The position numbers and the translations under genes were made by a program. Below, one piece after another: positions 1,880 through 62,123 of a DNA stretch of 64,000 bases (the first letter of the stretch is position 1; each line of letters opens with the position of its first letter). Origin of the DNA: Bacteroides sp. CAG:709 (GTDB lineage Bacteria; Bacteroidota; Bacteroidia; Bacteroidales; UBA932); the NCBI GenBank assembly GCA_000434935.1, contig FR882195.1, forward strand, positions 32,326 through 96,325, written 5' to 3'. The notes below the pieces were generated by a model, which saw only the letters and a program-made list of their open reading frames with translations, searched no databases and had not been told where the DNA came from.

Positions 1880-3958
1880 TTGGGGGAAGCTTCCATTGGT
1901 GATGCGAATATTTTGCAAAATTATTTTCGTATATTGGACCGAAATAAGGTTGATCAGAAATATTATACGGAAAAAATGAAAACCTACAACTTGATTACAG
2001 CGGAACAAATTGCGAGGCTGGAAGCACAATCGTGCAGGTGCGAGGACTGGAACAATGTCCTTGTAGACCCAGAATTTGACACGGAGTACGTGAGAAATGT
2101 GACGTTCTCCGGACAAATCAAACTGGGCTCATTCAAAAAAATCTTCACATTGGCAGGGGGAATCCGGAAGCACAGCGGAATTTTTCACGCTACCCTCCAC
2201 AATGTCGTGGTAGGAGACGACTGCATGATCGAACATGTCCGGAACTACATTGCAAATTACGTAATCGGCAGCGGCTCATATCTGGAGAATGTGACGGACC
2301 TGATTACCTATGGCGAGACATCGTTCGGCAATGGAATCAAGGTCAATGTCCTTAATGAAACGGGCGGACGTGAAGTCATCATCCATGACAATCTGTCCTC
2401 CCATGAAGCCTATATATCAGCACTTTATCGACACAAACCGGCATTGACTGAAGCCCTCGACAAGATGGTCGGAAAATATGTGCAGAGCGTCACAGCTTCC
2501 TTCGGCGTCATCGGCGAGAATGTCGAAATCCTCGACGCGATGCATATTGTCAATGTCAATATCGGCCCTTATGCCAGGATCAAGGGCGTTTCACGTTTAC
2601 GTAACGGATCGGTCATTTCCTGCAAGGAAGACCCTGTGGAGATAGGCATGAACGTGATAGCCGATGATTTCATCGTGGAAAGCGGAAGCAAGATTACTGA
2701 CGGCGTGATGATTTCCAAATGCTTTGTCGGACAAGCCTGTGCCCTGGGGCATGGCTACAGCGCTTCGGAATCATTGTTCTTCAGCAACTGCCAAGGAGAA
2801 AACGGTGAGGCATGCTCGCTTTTCGCCGGGCCATATACGGTTACCCATCACAAGTCGACACTGCTGATTGCCGGAATGTTTTCATTCATGAATGCCGGTT
2901 CGGGGTCCAACCAGAGCAATCACATGTATAAATTGGGACCGATTCATCAGGGTATTCTCGAAAGGGGAGCGAAGACTACATCAGATTCATATATATTGTG
3001 GCCCGCTAAAATCGGCGCGTTTTCCCTCGTAATGGGACGTCATGTCAACAATCTGGACACGACTGATTTGCCGTTTTCGTATCTGATTGAGCAGCAAGGC
3101 TCTACCTATATCGTCCCTGGCGTGAACCTGAAGTCTGTCGGGACCATACGTGATGTCAAGAAATGGCCGGAAAGGGACAAACGGAAAGACCCGCACCGCC
3201 TGGACCACATAAATTTCAACCATCTGAGTCCGTTCACCGTGCAGAAGATGTTTGCCGGCATTGATATCTTGGAACGCCTCAAGGAGGCTTCAGGTCTGAG
3301 GGCTGACAATTATTCTTACAAGAAAGCGACAATCCGTAATGCGGCACTGTTCAAAGGCATCAAATATTACCAGACAGCTATCGTAAAATTCTTGGGCAAC
3401 TCGCTGATCTCCAGGATTCAGGATGCTGATATCAGTACGGACGAGGGGCTTCGTCTCGCATTGCGCAAGGATACTGCCGTGGGCTCCGGACAATGGGTGG
3501 ACATCTCGGGTCTCATCGCCCCGGCTTCAGAAATAGAAAGTATCTGTGATGACGTGATTTCCGGGAAAATAGCGGATGTCAATGTCCTTTCAGACAGATT
3601 CCTGGACATTTTCGCCCATTACTACAATTACGAATGGACATGGGCCCATGATGCAATCGAGCGTTATTGGAAGATTGATCTTGCCCGGATTACACGAAAT
3701 GAAGCCGCCGATATAGTGAAACAGTGGAAGAATGCAGTCGTTTCTCTGGACAAGTTGATCTACGAAGACGCCCGTAAGGAATTCGACTTGACGACCATGA
3801 CAAGTTTCGGTGCTGACGGCGACAAGACGCGCCGGGATGAAGATTTCAATGCCGTCCGCGGCGGAGGTTTCGATGACAATCCTTTCGTTCAGGAAGTCAT
3901 TGACCACATCCGCCGCAAGTCGGCACTCGGGGACGGCATCATTGCCCGTCTCAAGTAA
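1880..3958 (+). CDS. DUF4954-family protein (Bacteroidetes, ~690 aa, beta-helix-like)
   Basis: Long ORF with an N-terminal 'NLITAEQIARLEAQ..CEDWNNV' region recalled as typical of the DUF4954 family. An alternative in-frame ATG lies at 1976 (MKTYNLI..). Confidence 0.5.
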   Translation: MGEASIGDANILQNYFRILDRNKVDQKYYTEKMKTYNLITAEQIARLEAQSCRCEDWNNVLVDPEFDTEYVRNVTFSGQIKLGSFKKIFTLAGGIRKHSGIFHATLHNVVVGDDCMIEHVRNYIANYVIGSGSYLENVTDLITYGETSFGNGIKVNVLNETGGREVIIHDNLSSHEAYISALYRHKPALTEALDKMVGKYVQSVTASFGVIGENVEILDAMHIVNVNIGPYARIKGVSRLRNGSVISCKEDPVEIGMNVIADDFIVESGSKITDGVMISKCFVGQACALGHGYSASESLFFSNCQGENGEACSLFAGPYTVTHHKSTLLIAGMFSFMNAGSGSNQSNHMYKLGPIHQGILERGAKTTSDSYILWPAKIGAFSLVMGRHVNNLDTTDLPFSYLIEQQGSTYIVPGVNLKSVGTIRDVKKWPERDKRKDPHRLDHINFNHLSPFTVQKMFAGIDILERLKEASGLRADNYSYKKATIRNAALFKGIKYYQTAIVKFLGNSLISRIQDADISTDEGLRLALRKDTAVGSGQWVDISGLIAPASEIESICDDVISGKIADVNVLSDRFLDIFAHYYNYEWTWAHDAIERYWKIDLARITRNEAADIVKQWKNAVVSLDKLIYEDARKEFDLTTMTSFGADGDKTRRDEDFNAVRGGGFDDNPFVQEVIDHIRRKSALGDGIIARLK

Positions 3959-4075: not shown

Positions 4076-4759
4076 TTGATTATGAACAGAAATAAATTGA
4101 CGGCAGCAACGGTCGCATGCATTCTTATGCTGACCTTCAGTATCTCTGCAATCGCGAGAATTAAAAAACCTGTCATAGAACGCGGCATGACCAAACAGCA
4201 AGTGACAGCTTTGCTTGGTACCCCGTTGACATCCAGTTTCGATGAATTCGGCGACATCTGGATGTATGAAGAATGGCGCGGACCGTTTGTGGGTGGTTCA
4301 AACGTAAGGATTTATGTAATGTTCGATATGACTGGTAAAGTCGTCAGATGTGACGAACGGACAATTGAGTCCAACCGGCAGGAAGAAATCAATTCTCAGG
4401 TTTACTCCAATGGCGTTCCAAGAATAAATCAGCAGGTATATCCGCATGGACTGCACGGGCTGAACGATAGAGACTTTTCCACTTTATATAAAAAAGTGTC
4501 CGATGCCAGCTTCGATAAAGACAAGAAGGATTTGATAGAAGTGGCCAGCCTTGGCTGCTATTACTCATGCAATCAATGCGCGAAGATATTAAGCATCTTT
4601 TCGTTTGACGATGATAAACTAGCCGTGTTCAAGTTAATGGCTTCTCATATCATTGACTTGCAGAATATACATATAATTTATCAGCAGTTTACATTCGATG
4701 ATGCCAAAAAGATGGTCTCGGATATTCTGCAGTCAGAGTTTGCACATTACTCGCACTGA
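4076..4759 (+). CDS. Secreted/lipoprotein with C-terminal DUF4476-like domain
   Basis: Signal peptide (MIMNRNKLTAATVACILMLTFSISA). The C-terminal 'EVASLGCYYSCNQCAKILSIFSFDDDKLAVFKL' resembles DUF4476. Confidence 0.45.
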   Translation: MIMNRNKLTAATVACILMLTFSISAIARIKKPVIERGMTKQQVTALLGTPLTSSFDEFGDIWMYEEWRGPFVGGSNVRIYVMFDMTGKVVRCDERTIESNRQEEINSQVYSNGVPRINQQVYPHGLHGLNDRDFSTLYKKVSDASFDKDKKDLIEVASLGCYYSCNQCAKILSIFSFDDDKLAVFKLMASHIIDLQNIHIIYQQFTFDDAKKMVSDILQSEFAHYSH

Positions 4760-4878: not shown

Positions 4879-7017
4879 CTAATTCACGAACACCATTTCT
4901 TTCAGCAGATGGTCTGCGCCGGCCAGCTTGTCTATGGTGAACAGGACATAGCGGATGTCAAGCGAAATGTTGCGGCAATAGTCAGGGTCGAATTCGATGT
5001 CGCTCATCGTGCCTTCCCATACGCGGTCGAAATTCAGACCGATCAGGTTGCCGTCCTTGTTTATCACCGGACTTCCGGAATTGCCTCCCGAGGTGTGGTT
5101 GGTGGCGATGAAGCATACCGGAACTGTCTTCTTTCCATTGTCCCCGGTTATCGCCCATTGACCGTAATCCTTGGCCGCATAGATGTCGCGCAGCCTCTGT
5201 GGAATGTCATAGTCGAAAATCTCAGGATTGTCCTTTTCCATTATTCCTTCGAGCGTCGACTGCGACTTGTAATATGTCCCGTCGGCAGGGGAGTAGCCGC
5301 TGATGCTTCCGTAAGCTACTCTCAATGTGAGATTTGCATCCGGGAAGAATGCTTTCTTCGGCTCGAACTCCATCTGACCTCTCATATAGTCCCTGTAAAG
5401 CAGAGTGATTTCACGGTTCAGGCGTTTCTCGTAAGGGTATACGTCGCTTGCATACCATTTCCTGAATTCATTGGCGAACCTTACCGCCGGATCAGCATAC
5501 ATTGTTGCCGTATCTGATGCCTGCAATTTCGCAACCTTGTCCGCATCCGTGAAGAGGGATTCTCCGAACAATGCATCTGCCCAGTTGCTTACGCTTCCGT
5601 ATTTCGCCAGCTCTTCTTTCATATACTCCGGATGGAACTCTTCGGGAACATCTTTAGCGAATGCGCTCATGGTCGCCACGAAAGACTCCTTGTCGATAGG
5701 AAGGTAATAATCCTTGTAGAATGCCTCCGACAATGCTGCCGCCCCTTCATTGTCGCCGCCGGCAAGCTTCTTCGCTACCGAACCCGCGAAACTGCAAAGC
5801 TCCACGGACGCGGCCGTCTCGCTGTAATACTCCCTGGCGAAAGTATAAGGTTCCAATGCTCCATACAATGAATCCAGGCGTGGCAGTATGGTGCTGTATT
5901 CCGTCCCCTCGGCCCACTTGGCAAATCTCTTTTCGTATTCCTGTTTTGCGGCTACGGTGCCCAGGCGGTTGATTCCCTTCATCTCGCCCTGCCACTTTTT
6001 CCATGCGTTGGCCACGCCGGCATTCTTGGAAGAGTACTGGATTCTGACCTTCTGGCTCTCGGACATGTATTTTTTCTGAGTGTCGAGCCTCATTGTCCTC
6101 AGTGCTATCTTCGCAGGGTCGGAAATCTCCGATACATATCTCACGCCCTCTGACATGATATATTCCTGGGTCCTTCCCGGAAATCCGTACACGAATGTGA
6201 AATCGCCTTCCTGAACGCCTCCGAGTGAAATCTTGAAGAATCTCTTGGGCGTGTATGGAACATTGTCCTCGGAATATTCAGCAGGGTTGTTGTCCTTGTC
6301 TGCATAGATGCGGAAAATGGAGAAGTCGCCCGTATGGCGCGGCCACATCCAGTTGTCCGTGTCGCCGCCGAACTTTCCGATGGATGAAGGCGGAGCACCT
6401 ACCAAGCGGACATCGCCGTATTCGCGGTAGAGGAACAGGAAATACTGGTTTCCGTAATACAATGACTCGACAGTAGCCCTAAGTCCCTTTCCTTCGGCTG
6501 TTACCTCTTTTATGAGCTGCTTGGAATTGACATTCACGATGGAGTCCCTTTGCGCTTCGGTCAATTCCGGGGTATATCCTTCGAGAATCACTGAAGTGAC
6601 GTCTTCCATCCTTTCCAGGAAACTCACGCTGAGCCCCTTGTTCGGCAGTTCCTCCTCTCTGCTCATTGCCCAGAATCCGTCCCGCAGGTAGTCGTGTTCG
6701 ACGCTGCTGTGCTTCTGGATCTGGCCGTATCCGCAGTGGTGGTTGGTAAGAAGCAGTCCTTCCGCTGAAATGACTTCACCCGTGCATCCGCGCCCGAAAA
6801 GCACGACCGCATCTTTCAATGATGCCTGATTCACGCTGTAAATGTCTTCTGCCGAGAGCCTGAAGCCCTTGTTCTGCATGTCCCCGATCCTCTCTGAAAT
6901 CAGCGACGGAAGCCACATGCCCTCATCCGCATAAGCCGCCGTTTCCGCAATGATTCCCATCGACAATGTCAATGTCAATGCTCCGATCGTGTTCCTGAAA
7001 ATTCCTTTCTGTGTCAT
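4879..7017 (-). CDS. S46 family serine dipeptidyl-peptidase (DPP7/DPP11-like)
   Basis: Signal peptide then 'DEGMWLP' and the C-terminal 'TGGNSGSPV' serine-protease motif characteristic of family S46. Start chosen at the MTQKGIF ATG (7017) rather than the upstream in-frame ATG at 7116. Confidence 0.75.
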   Translation of the reverse strand: MTQKGIFRNTIGALTLTLSMGIIAETAAYADEGMWLPSLISERIGDMQNKGFRLSAEDIYSVNQASLKDAVVLFGRGCTGEVISAEGLLLTNHHCGYGQIQKHSSVEHDYLRDGFWAMSREEELPNKGLSVSFLERMEDVTSVILEGYTPELTEAQRDSIVNVNSKQLIKEVTAEGKGLRATVESLYYGNQYFLFLYREYGDVRLVGAPPSSIGKFGGDTDNWMWPRHTGDFSIFRIYADKDNNPAEYSEDNVPYTPKRFFKISLGGVQEGDFTFVYGFPGRTQEYIMSEGVRYVSEISDPAKIALRTMRLDTQKKYMSESQKVRIQYSSKNAGVANAWKKWQGEMKGINRLGTVAAKQEYEKRFAKWAEGTEYSTILPRLDSLYGALEPYTFAREYYSETAASVELCSFAGSVAKKLAGGDNEGAAALSEAFYKDYYLPIDKESFVATMSAFAKDVPEEFHPEYMKEELAKYGSVSNWADALFGESLFTDADKVAKLQASDTATMYADPAVRFANEFRKWYASDVYPYEKRLNREITLLYRDYMRGQMEFEPKKAFFPDANLTLRVAYGSISGYSPADGTYYKSQSTLEGIMEKDNPEIFDYDIPQRLRDIYAAKDYGQWAITGDNGKKTVPVCFIATNHTSGGNSGSPVINKDGNLIGLNFDRVWEGTMSDIEFDPDYCRNISLDIRYVLFTIDKLAGADHLLKEMVFVN

Positions 7018-7201
7018 TCGGTTATTGTTTGATGTATGTTTTGTTTGATTGTTATGTTCTGCATGACGATATGAAGAACATAACACAAAGATAATCAAAT
7101 GCCGCCGATAATTCACAACCGTTGCGCGTTATTTGCCGCAAGAGTGACTGTATGATTTCCGCCACGCCTCTTTTCAATGCGTACCAGGGCAACAATAAGT
7201 A

Positions 7202-7320
7202 GGCGTGGCGCATAAGTCCTTACGTCATAGCGGATTAGCTACTTTCAGGGTTGCGGTTTTGCAAACTCTGAAAATGCCGAAATATCTAATAGCTAGCTAT
7301 TTACACGCCACGGCGCATAA
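7202..7320. repeat. Copy 1 of a repeated structured element: GTGGCGCATAA ... CGGATTAGC-TTTCAGGGTTGCGGTT ... AACTCTGAAAATGCC hairpin ... GGCGCATAA
   Basis: About 45 nt (7231-7278) are near-identical in arrangement to 46475-46522. The central imperfect palindrome is TTTCAGGGTTGC / GCAAACTCTGAAA. It is flanked by GGCGCATAA direct repeats at 7207-7215 and 7312-7320, plus an inverted CCGCCACGCCT at 7159-7169. Confidence 0.5.
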
Positions 7321-7420
7321 TTTCTACTTGTGCCAAACAGTTCACTTGCAAGTGAGGCATTTATTCTGATATGAATATCCCCTTGCAAGAAACCTGATTT
7401 TCGCTATCTTTGCAAAGATT

Positions 7421-7456
7421 TGAACATTTTGTAAGACAGATTTGAACATTTTGTAA
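7421..7456 (+). repeat. Left copy of a 36-38 bp direct repeat (TTTGAACATTTTGTAAGACAGATTTGAACATTTTGTAA) abutting the ATG of the ATPase gene
   Basis: Matches 8651-8688 with 1 mismatch and a 2-nt length difference (36 vs 38 bp). It is itself a tandem duplication of a TTTGAACATTTTRTAA core. Confidence 0.8.
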
Positions 7457-8655
7457 TGGAAAATCAGACATTTTACGTTAGGAAATACTACAATGATGTA
7501 TTAGGTAGAGTCAATGAGAAAAGGAATAAGATACAAGTGATTGTGGGCCCTCGTCAAGTTGGAAAGACCACCTTGATGGATCAAGTTCTGGAGAAGGTCA
7601 CGATTCCTTATACTCTAACGAAGGCAGATGGGGTTAATCCAAAAGATTCCAGTTGGATTCATCGTACATGGGAGTCTGTGCGTGGCCTGATGAGAATTAA
7701 GCATGAGCAAACTCACTTGCTTGTCATTGATGAGATTCAAAAAATTGATCAATGGAGTGAAGGTATCAAGACGGAATGGGACTGGGATACTCATAATGAT
7801 GTAAACATTAAATTGATTCTGCTCGGATCTTCCAGACTGATGTTACAGTCCGGACTTAAAGAGAGTCTTGCCGGAAGATTTGAATTGATTCGAATGGGAC
7901 ATTGGTCTTTCAAAGAAATGTCGGATGCGTTCGGATTATCATTGGAGGAATATATATATTTCGGAGGATATCCAGGCGCAGCTGGATTCTTGTCGGATGA
8001 GAGTCGTTGGAAACGCTATATTAAGGATAGCATAGCTGCTCCGGCAATCGAAAACGATATTCTTCAAACCAGCAATATTTACAAACCTGCTTTGATGAAG
8101 CGGTTGTTTGAACTTGGATGCAAATATTCGTCTGAGGAATTGTCTCTTACGAAAGTTGCAGGACAACTTCAAGATGAAGGGAATATCACTACTCTTGCAT
8201 CTTATCTTGATTTGTTGGACCAATGCCAATTAATCTCCGGGCTTCAAAAGTATGCTAATGATGATGCCCGCAAATATAATTCAAGCCCTAAATTCCAGGT
8301 TTATAACAATGCATTGCTGTCGGCCTTTCAACGAAAATCGTATGCGGCAGTAAGAGTTGATGCAAAATTATGGGGAAGATGGGTTGAAAGTGCTGTTGGT
8401 GCTCATCTTCTATCACAGGCTGAGGACGAAGATTTGAGGGTGTTTTATTGGCGTGAACGTGATGATGAAGTCGATTATATCGTGCAGTCTGATGATTCTT
8501 GCATTGCGATTGAAGTTAAAAGTGGGAGAAGAGGTATGAATAACGGATTGCCTAGGTTTACCGAAAAATTCAAACCTGCACATAGTTATATCATTGGCAC
8601 TGGTGGAATCCCTCTCGATGTTTTTCTTGCGAGTTCAATAATAGAGTTGTTTTGA
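7456..8655 (+). CDS. AAA-family ATPase with C-terminal PD-(D/E)xK-like DUF4143 domain
   Basis: Walker A 'VIVGPRQVGKTT' and Walker B 'LLVIDEIQ'. The C-terminal 'EVDYIVQSDDSCIAIEVKSG' fits a D..(E)xK nuclease-fold motif. This is the classic AAA_14 + DUF4143 architecture. Confidence 0.75.
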   Translation: MENQTFYVRKYYNDVLGRVNEKRNKIQVIVGPRQVGKTTLMDQVLEKVTIPYTLTKADGVNPKDSSWIHRTWESVRGLMRIKHEQTHLLVIDEIQKIDQWSEGIKTEWDWDTHNDVNIKLILLGSSRLMLQSGLKESLAGRFELIRMGHWSFKEMSDAFGLSLEEYIYFGGYPGAAGFLSDESRWKRYIKDSIAAPAIENDILQTSNIYKPALMKRLFELGCKYSSEELSLTKVAGQLQDEGNITTLASYLDLLDQCQLISGLQKYANDDARKYNSSPKFQVYNNALLSAFQRKSYAAVRVDAKLWGRWVESAVGAHLLSQAEDEDLRVFYWRERDDEVDYIVQSDDSCIAIEVKSGRRGMNNGLPRFTEKFKPAHSYIIGTGGIPLDVFLASSIIELF

Positions 8656-8688
8656 ACATTTTATAAGACAGATTTGAACATTTTGTAA
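8651..8688 (+). repeat. Right copy of the 36-38 bp direct repeat, overlapping the ATPase stop codon and immediately preceding the next gene
   Basis: TTTGAACATTTTATAAGACAGATTTGAACATTTTGTAA, compared with the left copy at 7421-7456. Confidence 0.8.
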
Positions 8689-8695
8689 AACGGAA

Positions 8696-8902
8696 ATGAA
8701 GATTGAAGAGGCGATTTTGTATGTTCTGGCTGAACGCAACGGCGGGTTGAGGACTGAACAGATTGCGGAGATCATCAACCGCAGGAGGCTGCATGTCAGG
8801 AAAGACGGGCAGCCGGTTACGTCGGCGCAGGTCTATGCCGTAGTGATGCGTTTCCCGGAAACATTTGTGAAGGCTGAAGGACGCATAATGCTGCTCATCT
8901 GA
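8696..8902 (+). CDS. Small putative winged-helix DNA-binding protein (68 aa)
   Basis: The ORF starts 8 nt after the right repeat. Its sequence 'LYVLAERNGGLRTEQIAEIINRRRLHV' looks like a wHTH. It is followed by a bidirectional hairpin terminator. Confidence 0.35.
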   Translation: MKIEEAILYVLAERNGGLRTEQIAEIINRRRLHVRKDGQPVTSAQVYAVVMRFPETFVKAEGRIMLLI

Positions 8903-44066: not shown

Positions 44067-45262
44067 TTATTTGGCTTTGCGGCACGATGTCTCTGGCTTG
44101 TCATATTTTCCGTCGAACACATCCTTTACCGCTTCGAGGAAACGGAAGCCCCAGTAACGGTCCGGAAGAAGGTAACTGCCCTCGACATATTCATTCCATG
44201 CGTTGAGCATCACGAACTTAGGTTGGGTGTCAGCATGGTCGTCAGCCCATTCCTTTGCGGTTTGTACGAAAGAAGCGAAGGCTCCGGTGAATGATTGTAT
44301 CGGGTAATGTCCTTTTCTCCTTTTTCCGGATAGCGTGGCGTGTTATCCCAGCCTACTGATGCCGTAGGGAACAGCGGAATTCCGAATTCCTTGTACCAAC
44401 GCTCCCTGAAACCTATTGCCTTCATTCCGTGACGGATATAGTCAGGCTCCATGCCGCCCATATTGTAAGCGGCCGTCGAAGAAATGCCGAACCTCTTTAT
44501 CTGGTCCTTGATGCGCTGAGTTTCCTCCTTTCCGCGTGGCCATATTCCTCCGCATAGTTGGATATGGACATCCGGGAATCCGGCTTCTTTTACCTTCCCG
44601 TGGAAATAATCCATAGCCTTTCCTGCCTCTTCCAATGAACCGAAGCTTTCCATGAAATAATCCAGGCTCCAGATGCTGAAAACCGGACACCCGTCAATTT
44701 TCACGTAGTTCGGGCGATGGAAATACTGGCTGATGACCCTGTCCACGATTATTTTCCATTGCTCCCAATCGATTCTCGGATCGAATGTCAATGTCTCGGT
44801 GTCGGAGTTGATATGCGGATTCCAATAATTCGTCACCTCATGATTCGCATACATTATATAGAAGTTCATCTTCTCGTTGGACGGTGCCTTCAGGAAGCCG
44901 TTGTCCAGCGCTTCTTCGAGGAACGGATACTTGTGGAACCAGTACCAGTCATATATGAAGGTGTTGACTCCATATTTGAGAGCTGTGTTTATCCATTTTT
45001 CCACTACTTCCGGATCATCATCCTGGTCGCCTTTCCACAGCGGCTCGCGCGGTTGGTAATGCCCCGGGAATCTCGGAGTTCCGGCATTGATGATTTCCCA
45101 TTCGCCTTGTCCGCCGGGCCAGATAAGTTCGTGGGCTAGAGAGTCGTCGTGGCATGACGGCCAGATGTAGGCACAGACATAATAGTCAGGAGTTTTGGTC
45201 CCTTGCGCGCAGGAAACTAGCGCGATGGCTGTCGCCAGGATTGCTGCAATTCGGTTTTTCAT
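44067..45262 (-). CDS. Frameshifted GH99-like/WbsX-like glycoside hydrolase-fold protein (ORF 44210..45262 plus a C-terminal continuation to 44067 in another frame)
   Basis: Frame A ends 'RYPEKGEKDITRYNHSPEPS...*'. The alternate frame reads 'GHYPIQSFTGAFASFVQTAKEWADDHADTQPKFVMLNAWNEYVEGSYLLPDRYWGFRFLEAVKDVF..*', protein-like and including an NAWNEW-type motif. The shift is in an A/T run at 44311-44327. Confidence 0.45.
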
Positions 45263-45532: not shown

Positions 45533-46459
45533 ATGATACAGGATAGCGGCAAGCATACCAGCAGATTTTCGCTGCTTTCGTTCGAAACGACCTCAAATGA
45601 AACGGAAGACTTGATTTCTTCCATCGGCTATCAGGATGTCGGACCTCGGCAGGAATATCCTGCCCGTGTCATACCCAAGCGCTACAGCTTCAATGACGGA
45701 AGGCAGTTGGCTGAATTCCAGCTGGTCTACATTACCGGCGGTACCGGCGTTTTCGAGGACAATGAAAGTTCCAGGATAGTTACTCCCGGTACGTTGTTCC
45801 TGCTCCGCCCGGGATATTGGCATTCTTATCACCCTAACAGGGATACAGGCTGGACAGAATATTATATAGGGTTCAACGGACCCACGTTCCGCCGTGAAAT
45901 CGAACGCTTTTTCGGTGAAAGGAAAGGCCCGATAGAATTGGGAATGTCTGCCACCCTCGTGGACCTTTTCGAACAGGCTCTCTTCTATTCGGAACGCCAA
46001 TGTTCTCAGACGATGTCGATTCTGCAGGCTGTCGTGATCCACATGCTTGCATTGGTGAACTACAATCTCACCACACGGGACAAGACGGATGACAAGCTCG
46101 ATGCCGCCATCAACTATGTGAAAAAATATATGGCAGACCATCTCTCCGAGCCGATAGACGTCCCGGCTCTTGCCGCCGAAAGGGGAATGAGCTACACCTG
46201 GCTCCGCCGCATGTTCCGCAAGAACACCGGAATGGCGCCCGCCCAATATCTCCAGCAATTGCGTATCCATATGTCAATGTACCTGCTGCGCAATACCTCA
46301 TTGCCGATAAAGAACGTAGCCGTAGACAGCGGTTTCAAAACCTCGGAGTATTTCTGCTCCGTATTCCAGGAAACTGTCGGCATGACACCCCGGGCGTATC
46401 GCGCAGCGAATAATGATGGGGCCAGACAACCGGAAACGGATGCAACATGTGGAGCATAA
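45533..46459 (+). CDS. AraC-family transcriptional regulator (cupin-like sensor plus HTH), divergent from the PUL
   Basis: C-terminal 'AQYLQQLRIHMSMYLL..YFCSVFQETVGMTPRAYR' is an AraC HTH. Confidence 0.7.
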   Translation: MIQDSGKHTSRFSLLSFETTSNETEDLISSIGYQDVGPRQEYPARVIPKRYSFNDGRQLAEFQLVYITGGTGVFEDNESSRIVTPGTLFLLRPGYWHSYHPNRDTGWTEYYIGFNGPTFRREIERFFGERKGPIELGMSATLVDLFEQALFYSERQCSQTMSILQAVVIHMLALVNYNLTTRDKTDDKLDAAINYVKKYMADHLSEPIDVPALAAERGMSYTWLRRMFRKNTGMAPAQYLQQLRIHMSMYLLRNTSLPIKNVAVDSGFKTSEYFCSVFQETVGMTPRAYRAANNDGARQPETDATCGA

Positions 46460-46559
46460 ACCTCTGTTTTATAACGGATTAGCCATTTTCAGAGTTGCCG
46501 TTCATCTAACTCTGAAAATGGCTAACTGTTTAACAGTTAATAATTTATGCTCCACACCA
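46445..46559. repeat. Copy 2 of the repeated structured element: GTGGAGCATAAA ... CGGATTAGCC-ATTTTCAGAGTTGCCGTT ... AACTCTGAAAATGGC, closed by the inverted TTTATGCTCCAC
   Basis: Shares ~45 nt of arrangement with 7231-7278. A nested 16-bp stem (46481-46496 / 46508-46523) sits inside a 12-14 bp outer inverted repeat (46448-46460 / 46545-46558). It overlaps the AraC stop codon. Confidence 0.5.
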
Positions 46560-46900
46560 GCTGTATCCAGTAATTGTCAGCACTTGGAATTCCGTACCGC
46601 CTACAACGTTTCTCGGAACAAAGCCCTACAATATTCGTCCTGTCGTGAGTGAATCCGGCCATTTTACGCACGACATGACATTTTTTCACCACGACGTGTG
46701 TGGAAAACGTTTTAATACGCACGGGACGTGGCTGGGGCGAAACGTAAGGGATGATGTAGAGGGAACAGTGCAGGACACACATTTGGTGCAGGTTAAAACG
46801 TTTTTTTTGGAACAAAATGCCCCAGCATGCACCCTCTGTACTGTCTAAAACGTTTTCGCGGTACAAAATAGATTACACATAATGAACCCTGTGACAGGAA

Positions 46901-47022
46901 AGCCCCGCCGGGGGTGGAGCCTCTGGAGGCATGGTCACCCATGACCTTGTGAATGGGTGTCAGGCGACAGCCTGACGGGATGAGCGAAGCGAACCTCCAG
47001 AGGCTCCACCCCCGGCGGGGCG
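46901..47022. other. GC-rich long hairpin: 27-bp perfect inverted repeat (CCCCGCCGGGGGTGGAGCCTCTGGAGG) around a 67-nt loop that has its own sub-hairpins
   Basis: 46902-46928 is the reverse complement of 46996-47022. The loop contains GTCAGGCGACAGCCTGAC and CATGGTCACCCATGACC palindromes. Confidence 0.6.
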
Positions 47023-47070
47023 CGTCAAACGCCCAAGCCAGCACGGACCAATGTCACATCATCAGGCAAT

Positions 47071-48574: not shown

Positions 48575-48717
48575 AATTATTATAAATTAAAAACATTCTC
48601 TTCACAACAGCCTCATCAAGCCGTTGTTACTTGAGAGCGTGCAACTTACGTGCCAATTTTCCAGCCGGCTCCCCAAATGTCCATCCCTGTCAATTTGTCA
48701 ATAAAATGACAAAACCA

Positions 48718-62010: not shown

Positions 62011-62085
62011 CTTTATTTTTGCCCCCATAGTCTAATGGATAGGATTTCAGATTCCGGTTCTGACGGTAGAGGTTCGAATCCCCTT
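62011..62085 (+). tRNA. tRNA-Arg (anticodon CCG), CCA encoded
   Basis: Manual fold: acceptor GCCCCCA/TGGGGGT with a G1-U72 wobble. D-arm GTCT-AATGGATA-GGAT. Anticodon stem TCAGA/TCTGA with loop TTCCGGT. T-arm ..GG-TTCGAAT-CC.. with one A-C mismatch. Discriminator A plus CCA. Confidence 0.7.
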
Positions 62086-62089
62086 GGGG

Positions 62090-62123
62090 GTACCAAACCA
62101 AAGCGCTCTGACTCAGCAAGTCA
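62090..62123. terminator. Hairpin terminator (AAAGCGCTCTGACT-N5-AGTCAGAGCGCTTT) shared by the tRNA and the convergent peptidase gene
   Basis: 14-bp perfect inverted repeat followed by CTTTCTTT. Confidence 0.6.

Follow-up and report, generated by a model that had tools for sequence, protein, structure and literature searches.

Two copies of a probable REPIN-type palindromic repeat in Bacteroides sp. CAG:709, and a candidate partner transposase in the same species

A stretch of 64,000 nt from Bacteroides sp. CAG:709 (assembly GCA_000434935.1, contig FR882195.1, positions 32,326-96,325 of the forward strand; called the window hereafter) contains two look-alike structured sequences, one between an S46 peptidase gene and a DUF4143 ATPase gene, and the other at the 3' end of a gene for an AraC-family regulator. 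What kind of element are they, and how might it have come to both places? A preliminary description of the window, in which the two copies had been noticed, proposed a mobile hairpin resembling a miniature inverted-repeat transposable element (MITE) or a repetitive extragenic palindromic (REP) sequence, a shared terminator module, or a small-RNA or regulatory motif. We consider it probable, at roughly 80%, that the two sequences are copies of a family of the REPIN type (REP doublets forming hairpins, or 'double-foot' long REPs), and that the same species encodes its cognate REP-associated tyrosine transposase (RAYT).

The evidence that carries this reading is of two sorts. On the side of the repeat, the element belongs to a palindromic family of fixed length with characteristic feet, which is spread outside genes and leaves no target-site duplications. 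On the side of the transposase, a RAYT gene flanked by elements is present in the same species, elements and RAYT genes co-vary by lineage, and both window copies are absent from the corresponding sites of sister species.

The two copies and their repeat family

The two copies (7205-7311 and 46449-46555) form a gapless direct repeat of 107 nt with 71% identity, the longest repeat returned by a repeat finder in the window, and copy 1 matches strain variants of copy 2 with a blastn E value of 7e-12. The likeness seen in the preliminary description is thus borne out, with the sequences as quoted there; its estimate of 75-115 nt, however, needs correcting to a true extent of about 107 nt from foot to foot, which weaker flanks take to about 130 nt. 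Both copies open with GTGG(C/A)GCATAA, a string that had also been noted at both and that proves to be the start of the element. Each is an imperfect palindrome with a 5' GTGG foot (7205-7208 and 46449-46452), a 3' CCAC foot (7308-7311 and 46552-46555) and a TTTCAGRGTTG...AACTCTGAAA hairpin at the centre. The left end reads GTGGCGCATAA in copy 1 (7205-7215) and GTGGAGCATAA in copy 2 (46449-46459); the reverse complement of the latter stands at 46545-46555, so that the inverted pair reported around copy 2, and its overlap with the AraC stop codon, are confirmed. At the right end copy 2 has the perfect reverse complement TTTATGCTCCAC and copy 1 the degraded form TTTACACGCCAC. Copy 2 folds into a near-perfect long hairpin (z = -9.5 as RNA, -9.2 as DNA), and copy 1 into an eroded version of it (z = -1.3 to -2.6). 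The core of copy 1 carries an A-to-G change relative to the family core, which is retained as TTTCAGAGTTGC in an orthologue (locus L074), and the small local hairpin of copy 2, AACTGTTTAACAGTT, occurs in the compensated form AACTATTTAATAGTT in strain variants. No third copy was found in the window even at very relaxed thresholds, which makes the density there one per 32 kb. The features of the two loci are as follows.

7205-7311, forward strand: copy 1, GTGGCGCATAAG ... TTTACACGCCAC, a degraded palindrome between the divergent S46 peptidase and DUF4143 ATPase genes
7243-7274, forward strand: central hairpin of copy 1, TTTCAGGGTTGC-N9-AACTCTGAAAA
7313-7321, forward strand: GGCGCATAA, a repeat of the left-arm 9-mer directly after the right foot of copy 1
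46449-46555, forward strand: copy 2, GTGGAGCATAAA ... TTTATGCTCCAC, a nearly perfect palindrome with weaker pairing out to 46438-46568
46487-46518, forward strand: central hairpin of copy 2, TTTCAGAGTTGC-N9-AACTCTGAAAA, the most conserved core of the family
46524-46538, forward strand: small local hairpin in the right half of copy 2, AACTGTTTAACAGTT, an arm of a four-way junction in the DNA fold
46448-46459, forward strand: last three codons and stop of the AraC-family gene, TGT GGA GCA TAA, encoded by the left arm of copy 2
45533-46459, forward strand: AraC-family regulator gene, overlapping copy 2 at its 3' end
4879-7017, reverse strand: S46 peptidase gene, whose start faces copy 1
7456-8655, forward strand: DUF4143 AAA ATPase gene, whose start lies on the other side of copy 1

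Further copies, which the preliminary description had proposed to count, proved to be numerous. The genome of Bacteroides sp. CAG:545, a species other than that of the window, yielded eight copies to a search with a strict pattern of the core, which also gave three chance matches elsewhere; in a metagenome scan the same pattern found at least 120 stretches, and the named records among the matches listed were nearly all human-gut assemblies. Gut-metagenome and genome loci chosen for carrying the element, 1.1 Mb in total (denoted by L-numbers), were retrieved and scanned with a hidden Markov model (HMM) built from ten copies. The HMM returned 156 instances, mostly intergenic, 151 of which could be fully extracted and comprise 149 distinct sequences; 147 of the 151 are identical in length and align without gaps, and 105 overlap no long open reading frame (ORF). 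Nine copies lie in the retrieved CAG:545 loci and at least seven on a 3.04-Mb contig of the window's own species; these are all clearly different from each other, with no near-identical cloud among them, and the family looks old or slowly replicating. Judged from the unselected extra copies in the retrieved DNA, the density is about one per 40 kb; for the species and its relatives, an estimate of one copy every 30-40 kb or so results. A literature search with sequence strings returned unrelated primers only, and IMG/VR gave one match, which was uninformative on viral origin.

By information content the consensus is roughly GGCG(Y)(R)..CG(Y)GTAA - ~20 nt - TTAGCCATTTTCAGAGTTG - 9-nt loop - CAACTCTGAAAATGGCTAA - ~20 nt - TTACGCG..(Y)(R)CGCC, with weaker GA.ACA / TGT..C flanks outside the arms, and the 9-nt loop is the most variable part of the element. 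About 17% of copies per side bear a fixed extension, GGACGAYACA / TGTRTCGTCC(TGAAAAAAG). The feet of all same-species copies are of the GTG[GA]/CCAC type and those of the CAG:545-like lineage read GCAC or GCAG, so that the GT[AG]G feature is found in the window's lineage and is altered in the sister lineage. Chimeric copies with left and right halves from different subfamilies exist, and so do solo halves. In a gapless 156-column alignment of 68 representatives, the pairing rule i+j=156 gave 73% of stem cells paired, against 35-38% when the partner was slid; a shuffle control gave 71%, hence much of this pairing is explained by the palindromic consensus. Covarying pairs occur at 26-130 (CG/UA), at 27-129 (AU/GC), and between 58-62 and 94-98, and the change of foot between lineages (GTGG/CCAC versus GCAC/GCAG) accounts for the strongest of them. 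RNAalifold, run on 69 representatives, recovered the central stem alone, and the explicit palindrome was scored instead.

Three observations concern sequences that accompany the element. First, a flank motif which includes CGTC, and which reads GGTAAACTTTTTTCAGGACGAYACA to the left of the element and TGTRTCGTCCTGAAAAAAGTTTACC to its right, stands at a fixed distance from about 17% of elements per side (e.g. at L024, L031, L035, L065 and L083), at neither window copy, and once solo (L083 1618-1650); it is either the end of a full-length element or a separate companion motif. Second, at L083 720-1420, three tandem copies of the element are interspersed with arrays of a 22-nt tandem repeat (about GACGGGGATGGAGGACGGTTCC), forming a repeating module of ~340 nt, the copy number of which varies among related contigs (L032, L130). 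Third, the window holds at 46886-47029 a member of a second, unrelated palindromic family, GCCCCGCCGGGGGTGGAGCCTCTGGAGG ... reverse complement, with 28-nt perfect arms at 46902-46929 and 46994-47021 and a DNA fold of z = -10.8. Copies that are 84-94% identical occur at at least 13 other loci, mostly abutting the REP-like element (e.g. L019 1204-1348, beside an element at 1351), and the metagenome contigs L004-L007 terminate within this region. The second family looks younger, and looks to cluster with the REP-like element in the manner of bacterial interspersed mosaic elements (BIMEs).

The transposase gene and its relatives

Scanning of ORFs between closely spaced elements brought out a gene (L070:4321-5220) for a 299-aa protein with a Pfam Y1_Tnp (IS200-like) match above the cut-off. 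Elements adjoin this gene on either side, at 4108-4231 and 5219-5345, and the neighbouring genes, as read from their translations, are QueF-like and FabZ-like. The gene is located on contig VOFG01005054.1 (3.04 Mb), another locus of which, L075, carries an orthologue of copy 2 and is 95-97.5% identical to the window; from this identity we infer that the RAYT-bearing genome belongs to the window's species. The window itself contains no RAYT gene.

Several lines of evidence point to the RAYT class. The HUH motif NHFH (H49, H51) and Y109, in the context YICNNPV, are invariant in 15 homologues, as is N113, and N112 is nearly so. Among the NCBIfam models, NF047646, "REP-associated tyrosine transposase", matched best (E 1.8e-10, profile positions 24-145 of 146), and the IS200 model scored far worse (E 0.006). 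For P0001, a protein 96% identical to that of L070, an AlphaFold model with a pLDDT of 88.9 was used for a Foldseek search, the top PDB match of which was 4ER8_A, the E. coli RAYT bound to a REP hairpin (E 3.2e-5, TM 0.65, rmsd 3.3 A), with the IS608 and ISDra2 TnpA chains ranking behind it (E 6e-3 or worse). A phmmer search of the PDB with the transposase found nothing, so that the match needed profile and fold searches. The C-terminal half of about 170 aa is conserved in the transposase family and had no annotated match.

The association of gene and element recurs among homologues. A 69%-identical homologue from the CAG:545-like lineage has elements on both sides. Homologues at 59, 41, 34 and 35% identity each stand alone among different housekeeping genes, with a hairpin in at least one flank: that at 59% has elements on both sides, that at 41% has them too, the upstream one being no more than a weak partial match, and the hairpins beside those at 34% and 35%, recognized by visual reading, are downstream only in the latter case. 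The outer arms GCGTGGAGCGTAA/TTACGCTCCACG themselves are found at the 41% homologue only, with degenerate or variant forms at the others, and the central hairpin of the elements beside these genes is lineage-specific. According to precomputed Pfam annotation, the other neighbours of the homologues are PGA_cap/PhoH, DUF2147/MazG, SNF/DHFR and MsrA/GltX; no TnpB gene was found beside the transposase gene at L070 or at the homologue loci. A profile search of metagenomes gave at least 333 clusters of full-length relatives at 50% identity, hence the long form is a sizeable family. The co-variation of repeat and transposase is a hallmark of REP-RAYT systems, and the argument for a partnership is based on the tight double flanking together with the recurrence in five lineages.

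A second, very distant Y1-like protein was met with elsewhere. Where the window has about 11 nt (~48700-48715), one strain has a 1.15-kb segment (L075 971-2131), preceded by a T-rich structured region, which encodes a protein (L075:1186-2112) with a Pfam Y1_Tnp E value of 1e-3 and the motifs GNHLH and YINRNG; the segment may be a separate mobile Y1 element.

Insertion sites, proposed mechanism and alternative explanations

The genes bordering an element are convergent in 46% of cases, co-directional in 45% and divergent in 8%, against a background of 20%, 65% and 16%, respectively. Direct repeats flanking the elements are no longer than in shuffled or mismatched-pair controls, in the two registers searched. 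The 9-mer GGCGCATAA of the left arm of copy 1 (7206-7214) does recur at 7313-7321, also in the orthologue L074, as the preliminary description had pointed out; its suggestion of a target-site duplication does not extend to the family, as duplication-like flanks were seen only at the copy 1 locus, at its orthologue, and in one 8-nt case.

Comparison with sister species bears on the history of both sites. A sister species with 87% aa identity in S46 has a syntenic S46/ATPase spacer that lacks positions 7207-7385 of the window (the element with 74 nt extra); the missing block starts inside the left GTGG foot, and the flanks align well on both sides. At the other locus, the AraC orthologues of sister species (81% identity) match up to ...ACGGATGCAAC and diverge exactly at the element border, and no element is detectable at the AraC end there; in a third group, with AraC 81-84% identical, the gene ends 14 codons earlier at an ordinary GC-rich hairpin. 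The endings of AraC are CGA-stop in the window, KRGA-stop in another strain, and ILIQ-stop in an element-free relative. Since they are absent from syntenic sites of sister species, both window copies appear to be lineage-specific, and the alignments indicate that AraC has had its end replaced by copy 2, which supplies the stop codon. Exact protein matches assign the window to an organism known from human-gut metagenomes. Copy 2 is followed by about 500 nt of non-coding sequence and then a convergent gene, and several assemblies stop within a few hundred bases past it, as at repeats. Many matches of the family likewise lie at contig ends, as one would expect of a repeat that breaks assemblies, and synteny breaks among related contigs pile up at element borders. 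The metagenome loci yielded no clean empty sites, and deletion derivatives only (L054, L109): at L109 ~1984-1911, compared with L019 1351-1482 and L068 8346-8477, exactly the central 47 nt, i.e. the conserved hairpin, are lost and both outer arms are kept.

If the element is of the REPIN type, it would be a non-autonomous imperfect palindrome made of two half-elements that meet at the conserved central hairpin, with GT[AG]G as the 5' foot and an inverted C[CT]AC at the 3' end. By analogy with the E. coli TnpA_REP and the IS608 and ISDra2 TnpA proteins, it would extrude as a hairpin in single-stranded DNA, for instance at a replication fork; the RAYT would bind the hairpin together with the adjacent foot tetranucleotide, cleave through its catalytic tyrosine, and move or copy the element without duplicating the target. 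A broader proposition, which we put forward tentatively and at somewhat less than even odds, is that the observations jointly mark an undescribed Bacteroidales-wide branch of REPIN-RAYT systems, with a long-form RAYT carrying an extra C-terminal domain, a two-tier repeat, and elements bordering accessory and defence insertions. In such a branch the GTGG-footed outer stem could be recognizable across RAYT lineages down to ~34% identity and the central hairpin be lineage-specific, and the extra C-terminal domain may be what reads the central hairpin.

Several points weigh against the REPIN-RAYT reading. No transposition, precise excision or insertion event was observed, and the empty sites lack more than the element, namely a block of 179 nt in all at copy 1, and right-flank synteny at copy 2; as indels larger than the element, they do not amount to clean footprints of insertion. 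Within one genome the copies are old and have diverged (71% identity for the window pair), unlike the REPIN populations of Pseudomonas, and their number, which by extrapolation suggests 80-100 per 3-Mb genome, is an estimate only. That the central stem is so invariant is due in part to ascertainment, the search patterns having required the stem, and because the loci were selected for the element, proximity of gene and element alone carries no significance. As for the protein, it scores 40.9 bits with NF047646 against an equivalog cut-off of 80 bits, and with ~300 aa, including an uncharacterised C-terminal half, it exceeds the mean of 194 aa in RAYT subclass 2.4.

The alternative that survives best, improbable as we hold it to be, is that of a structured RNA, in which the element would be a shared intrinsic terminator, an mRNA 3' stabiliser or a family of small regulatory RNAs, selected for RNA folding. 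It would accord with the very stable fold of copy 2 (z = -9.5), with the enrichment of elements downstream of genes, in convergent intergenic regions, with the one strain-level compensatory change in the local hairpin of copy 2, and with the persistence of orthologous copies across strains. However, no Rfam 15 family matched the element at gathering or relaxed thresholds (the only Rfam call in the window is a tRNA at 62021-62092, and a relaxed scan of 7100-7460 gave sub-threshold chance matches only), terminator and promoter scans found no U-tract (T-tract) and called no terminator at either copy, and copy 1 sits between divergent gene starts, in a divergent promoter region. Moreover, the 9-nt loop is the most variable part, and sister species do without either copy at the syntenic loci. 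Within the stems, G-U and A-C mismatches number 360 and 326 in the orientation of the model, and 211 and 211 (p = 0.85) when elements between co-directional genes are oriented by transcription; since an RNA tolerates G-U but not A-C on one strand, these equal numbers favour neither strand and point to a palindrome at the DNA level. The terminator and small-RNA proposals of the preliminary description are thus unlikely, and REP-type secondary effects of elements on transcripts are possible. A cloverleaf or four-way-junction RNA was rejected as well, since local arms are supported only by a single compensatory change and by copy 2 when folded as DNA, and type-A copies are without them.

Less likely still is a MITE in the classical sense, derived from a DDE insertion sequence (IS) by internal deletion and moved in trans by way of its terminal inverted repeats. 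The element is small, intergenic and multi-copy, with the inverted termini GTGGAGCATAAA / TTTATGCTCCAC at copy 2, and one DDE transposase gene (DUF772/DDE_Tnp_1) lies between two elements (L022 6833-8305); these elements, however, are of different subfamilies and about 180 nt from the DDE ORF, and the case looks like the insertion of an IS into a group of repeats, some ISs being known to target REPs. The palindrome spans the whole element, with a conserved centre and not the tips alone, target-site duplications are absent, no IS with matching ends occurs in the 1.1 Mb of loci, and the gene that recurs beside the element in five lineages is a Y1 and not a DDE transposase. From the 'MITE/REP-like mobile hairpin' of the preliminary description, the REP-like part is therefore kept, given the palindromic family and its flanked cognate RAYT, and the classical MITE is considered unlikely for want of duplications.

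Strain-variable cargo was noted beside elements at L094 286-1892, L159-L161 ~2720-3930, L025 2590-7300 and L107 4540-9670. [quoted passage not shown] One might accordingly regard the element as a site-specific recombination or attachment site for accessory cassettes, attC-like or lox-like with its 12-nt inverted arms and 9-nt spacer, a view we consider equally far-fetched. The concentration of synteny breaks at element borders, the 4.7-kb cargo of L025 between two elements where L081 has a single one, the AbiE toxin-antitoxin pair at the same spot in L094, the 5.1-kb insertion abutting an element in L107, and the chimeric combinations of subfamily halves would fit it; but neither an integrase nor a recombinase was found within the cargo segments or next to them, the insertion in L107 is bordered by an element at just one end, the breakpoints lie at the outer borders and not in the central 'core', and intergenic regions gather repeats and rearrangements anyway. 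Homologous recombination between dispersed repeats accounts for the chimeras, indels and cargo cases.

Some further observations were made in the neighbourhood of the two window copies. Just left of copy 1, 7161-7190 gave a weak sub-threshold Rfam match to the abiF RNA (23.5 bits against a gathering threshold of 37, E 0.056), within a 39-nt stretch that is likewise missing in the sister species; the match is probably due to chance. Tandem TTTGAACATTTTGTAA(GACAGA) direct repeats at 7397-7478 and 8651-8710 bracket the DUF4143 AAA ATPase gene (7456-8655); the upstream set is kept in the sister species, the downstream set precedes a 68-aa ORF (8696-8902), and the repeats may serve as a common promoter or operator, or mark the two ends of a gene cassette. 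On the AraC side, a Glyco_tran_WbsX gene (44067-45262, reverse strand) is split in the window and some strains into ORFs of 47/48 aa and 350 aa that overlap near 44210, and is intact as one gene of 390-398 aa in other strains of the species (L003, L005-L007), which is probably a frameshift or pseudogene polymorphism.

Comparison with known systems

The kind of element is already known, but is little described in gut Bacteroidales. Work on REPs or REPINs and their RAYTs has so far been almost confined to Proteobacteria, with survey-level mention of 'double-foot' or 'atypical' structures by Y1 genes in Bacteroidetes. What the present study adds is no new mechanism, but the documentation of an abundant, concrete family with its likely partner transposase in uncultured human-gut Bacteroidales. 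The family accounts for assembly breaks at its sites, its borders coincide with strain-level indels, including those with AbiE toxin-antitoxin cargo, and at AraC a copy appears to have rewritten the 3' end of a gene by donating a stop codon. Masking or modelling of the family is advisable in the annotation of gut Bacteroidales, as it will otherwise go on turning up as a small-RNA or terminator candidate.

Systems of REPs or REPINs with a RAYT have reportedly been worked out in Pseudomonas and E. coli, by Nunvar in 2010, Bertels and Rainey in 2011, and Ton-Hoang and Messing in 2012. The present family resembles them in being an extragenic imperfect palindrome of two inverted halves, which forms a hairpin of ~110 nt, has a GT[AG]G foot, leaves no target duplication, and is enriched between convergent and co-directional genes; the single repeat-flanked Y1 HUH gene among housekeeping genes, and the co-variation of repeat and transposase, are further points of likeness. 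It differs in its host, which is a gut Bacteroidales and not a proteobacterium, and in that the hairpin centre is its most conserved part, whereas the spacer or loop of REPINs is variable. Its copies are also far more diverged, without a cloud around a master sequence, and the transposase, unlike known RAYTs, has ~300 aa with an extra conserved C-terminal half and scores under the NCBIfam RAYT cut-off.

Other families of short repeats offer partial parallels. Like ERIC/IRU, Correia and RUP elements, the present one is an intergenic imperfect palindrome of ~100-130 nt with dozens to hundreds of copies, which can run into the ends of genes and fold in the transcript. Correia and RUP elements come with terminal inverted repeats, target duplications and DDE transposases, whereas the element described here has neither duplications nor a DDE partner, and has a Y1 partner instead; no transposase is known for ERIC. 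With the ends of IS200/IS605 elements and with palindrome-associated transposable elements (PATEs) it shares a Y1 HUH transposase, recognition of a DNA hairpin, and the lack of duplication. Unlike in IS200/IS605, however, the transposase is a lone gene without TnpB, found in varied housekeeping contexts and structurally nearer to the RAYT (4ER8) than to IS608 or ISDra2 TnpA, and the repeats are dispersed as solo palindromes and not as paired IS ends.

The closest published counterpart is subclass 2.4 of the TnpA_REP proteins (Bertels group 4), which is abundant in Bacteroidetes, has a mean length of 194 aa, and is marked by the motifs NH[IFV]H and YIxNNP and by 'double foot' REPs with 5' GT[AG]G and 3' C[TC]AC, for which an inverted REP dimer has been considered as a possible origin (Quentin et al. 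2018, PMC6006769). REPs are likewise known to prefer convergent and co-directional intergenic regions (Di Nocera et al. 2013, PMC3733652). The protein described here departs from the subclass in its length of ~300 aa and in having GxAxK where the published W motif has 'WQ'; the transposase gene showed no REP insertion, and the foot of the CAG:545-like lineage is changed to GCAC/GCAG. By motifs (NHFH and YICNNP), by host (Bacteroidetes) and by feet (GTGG...CCAC), nevertheless, the element and its putative transposase are like subclass 2.4.

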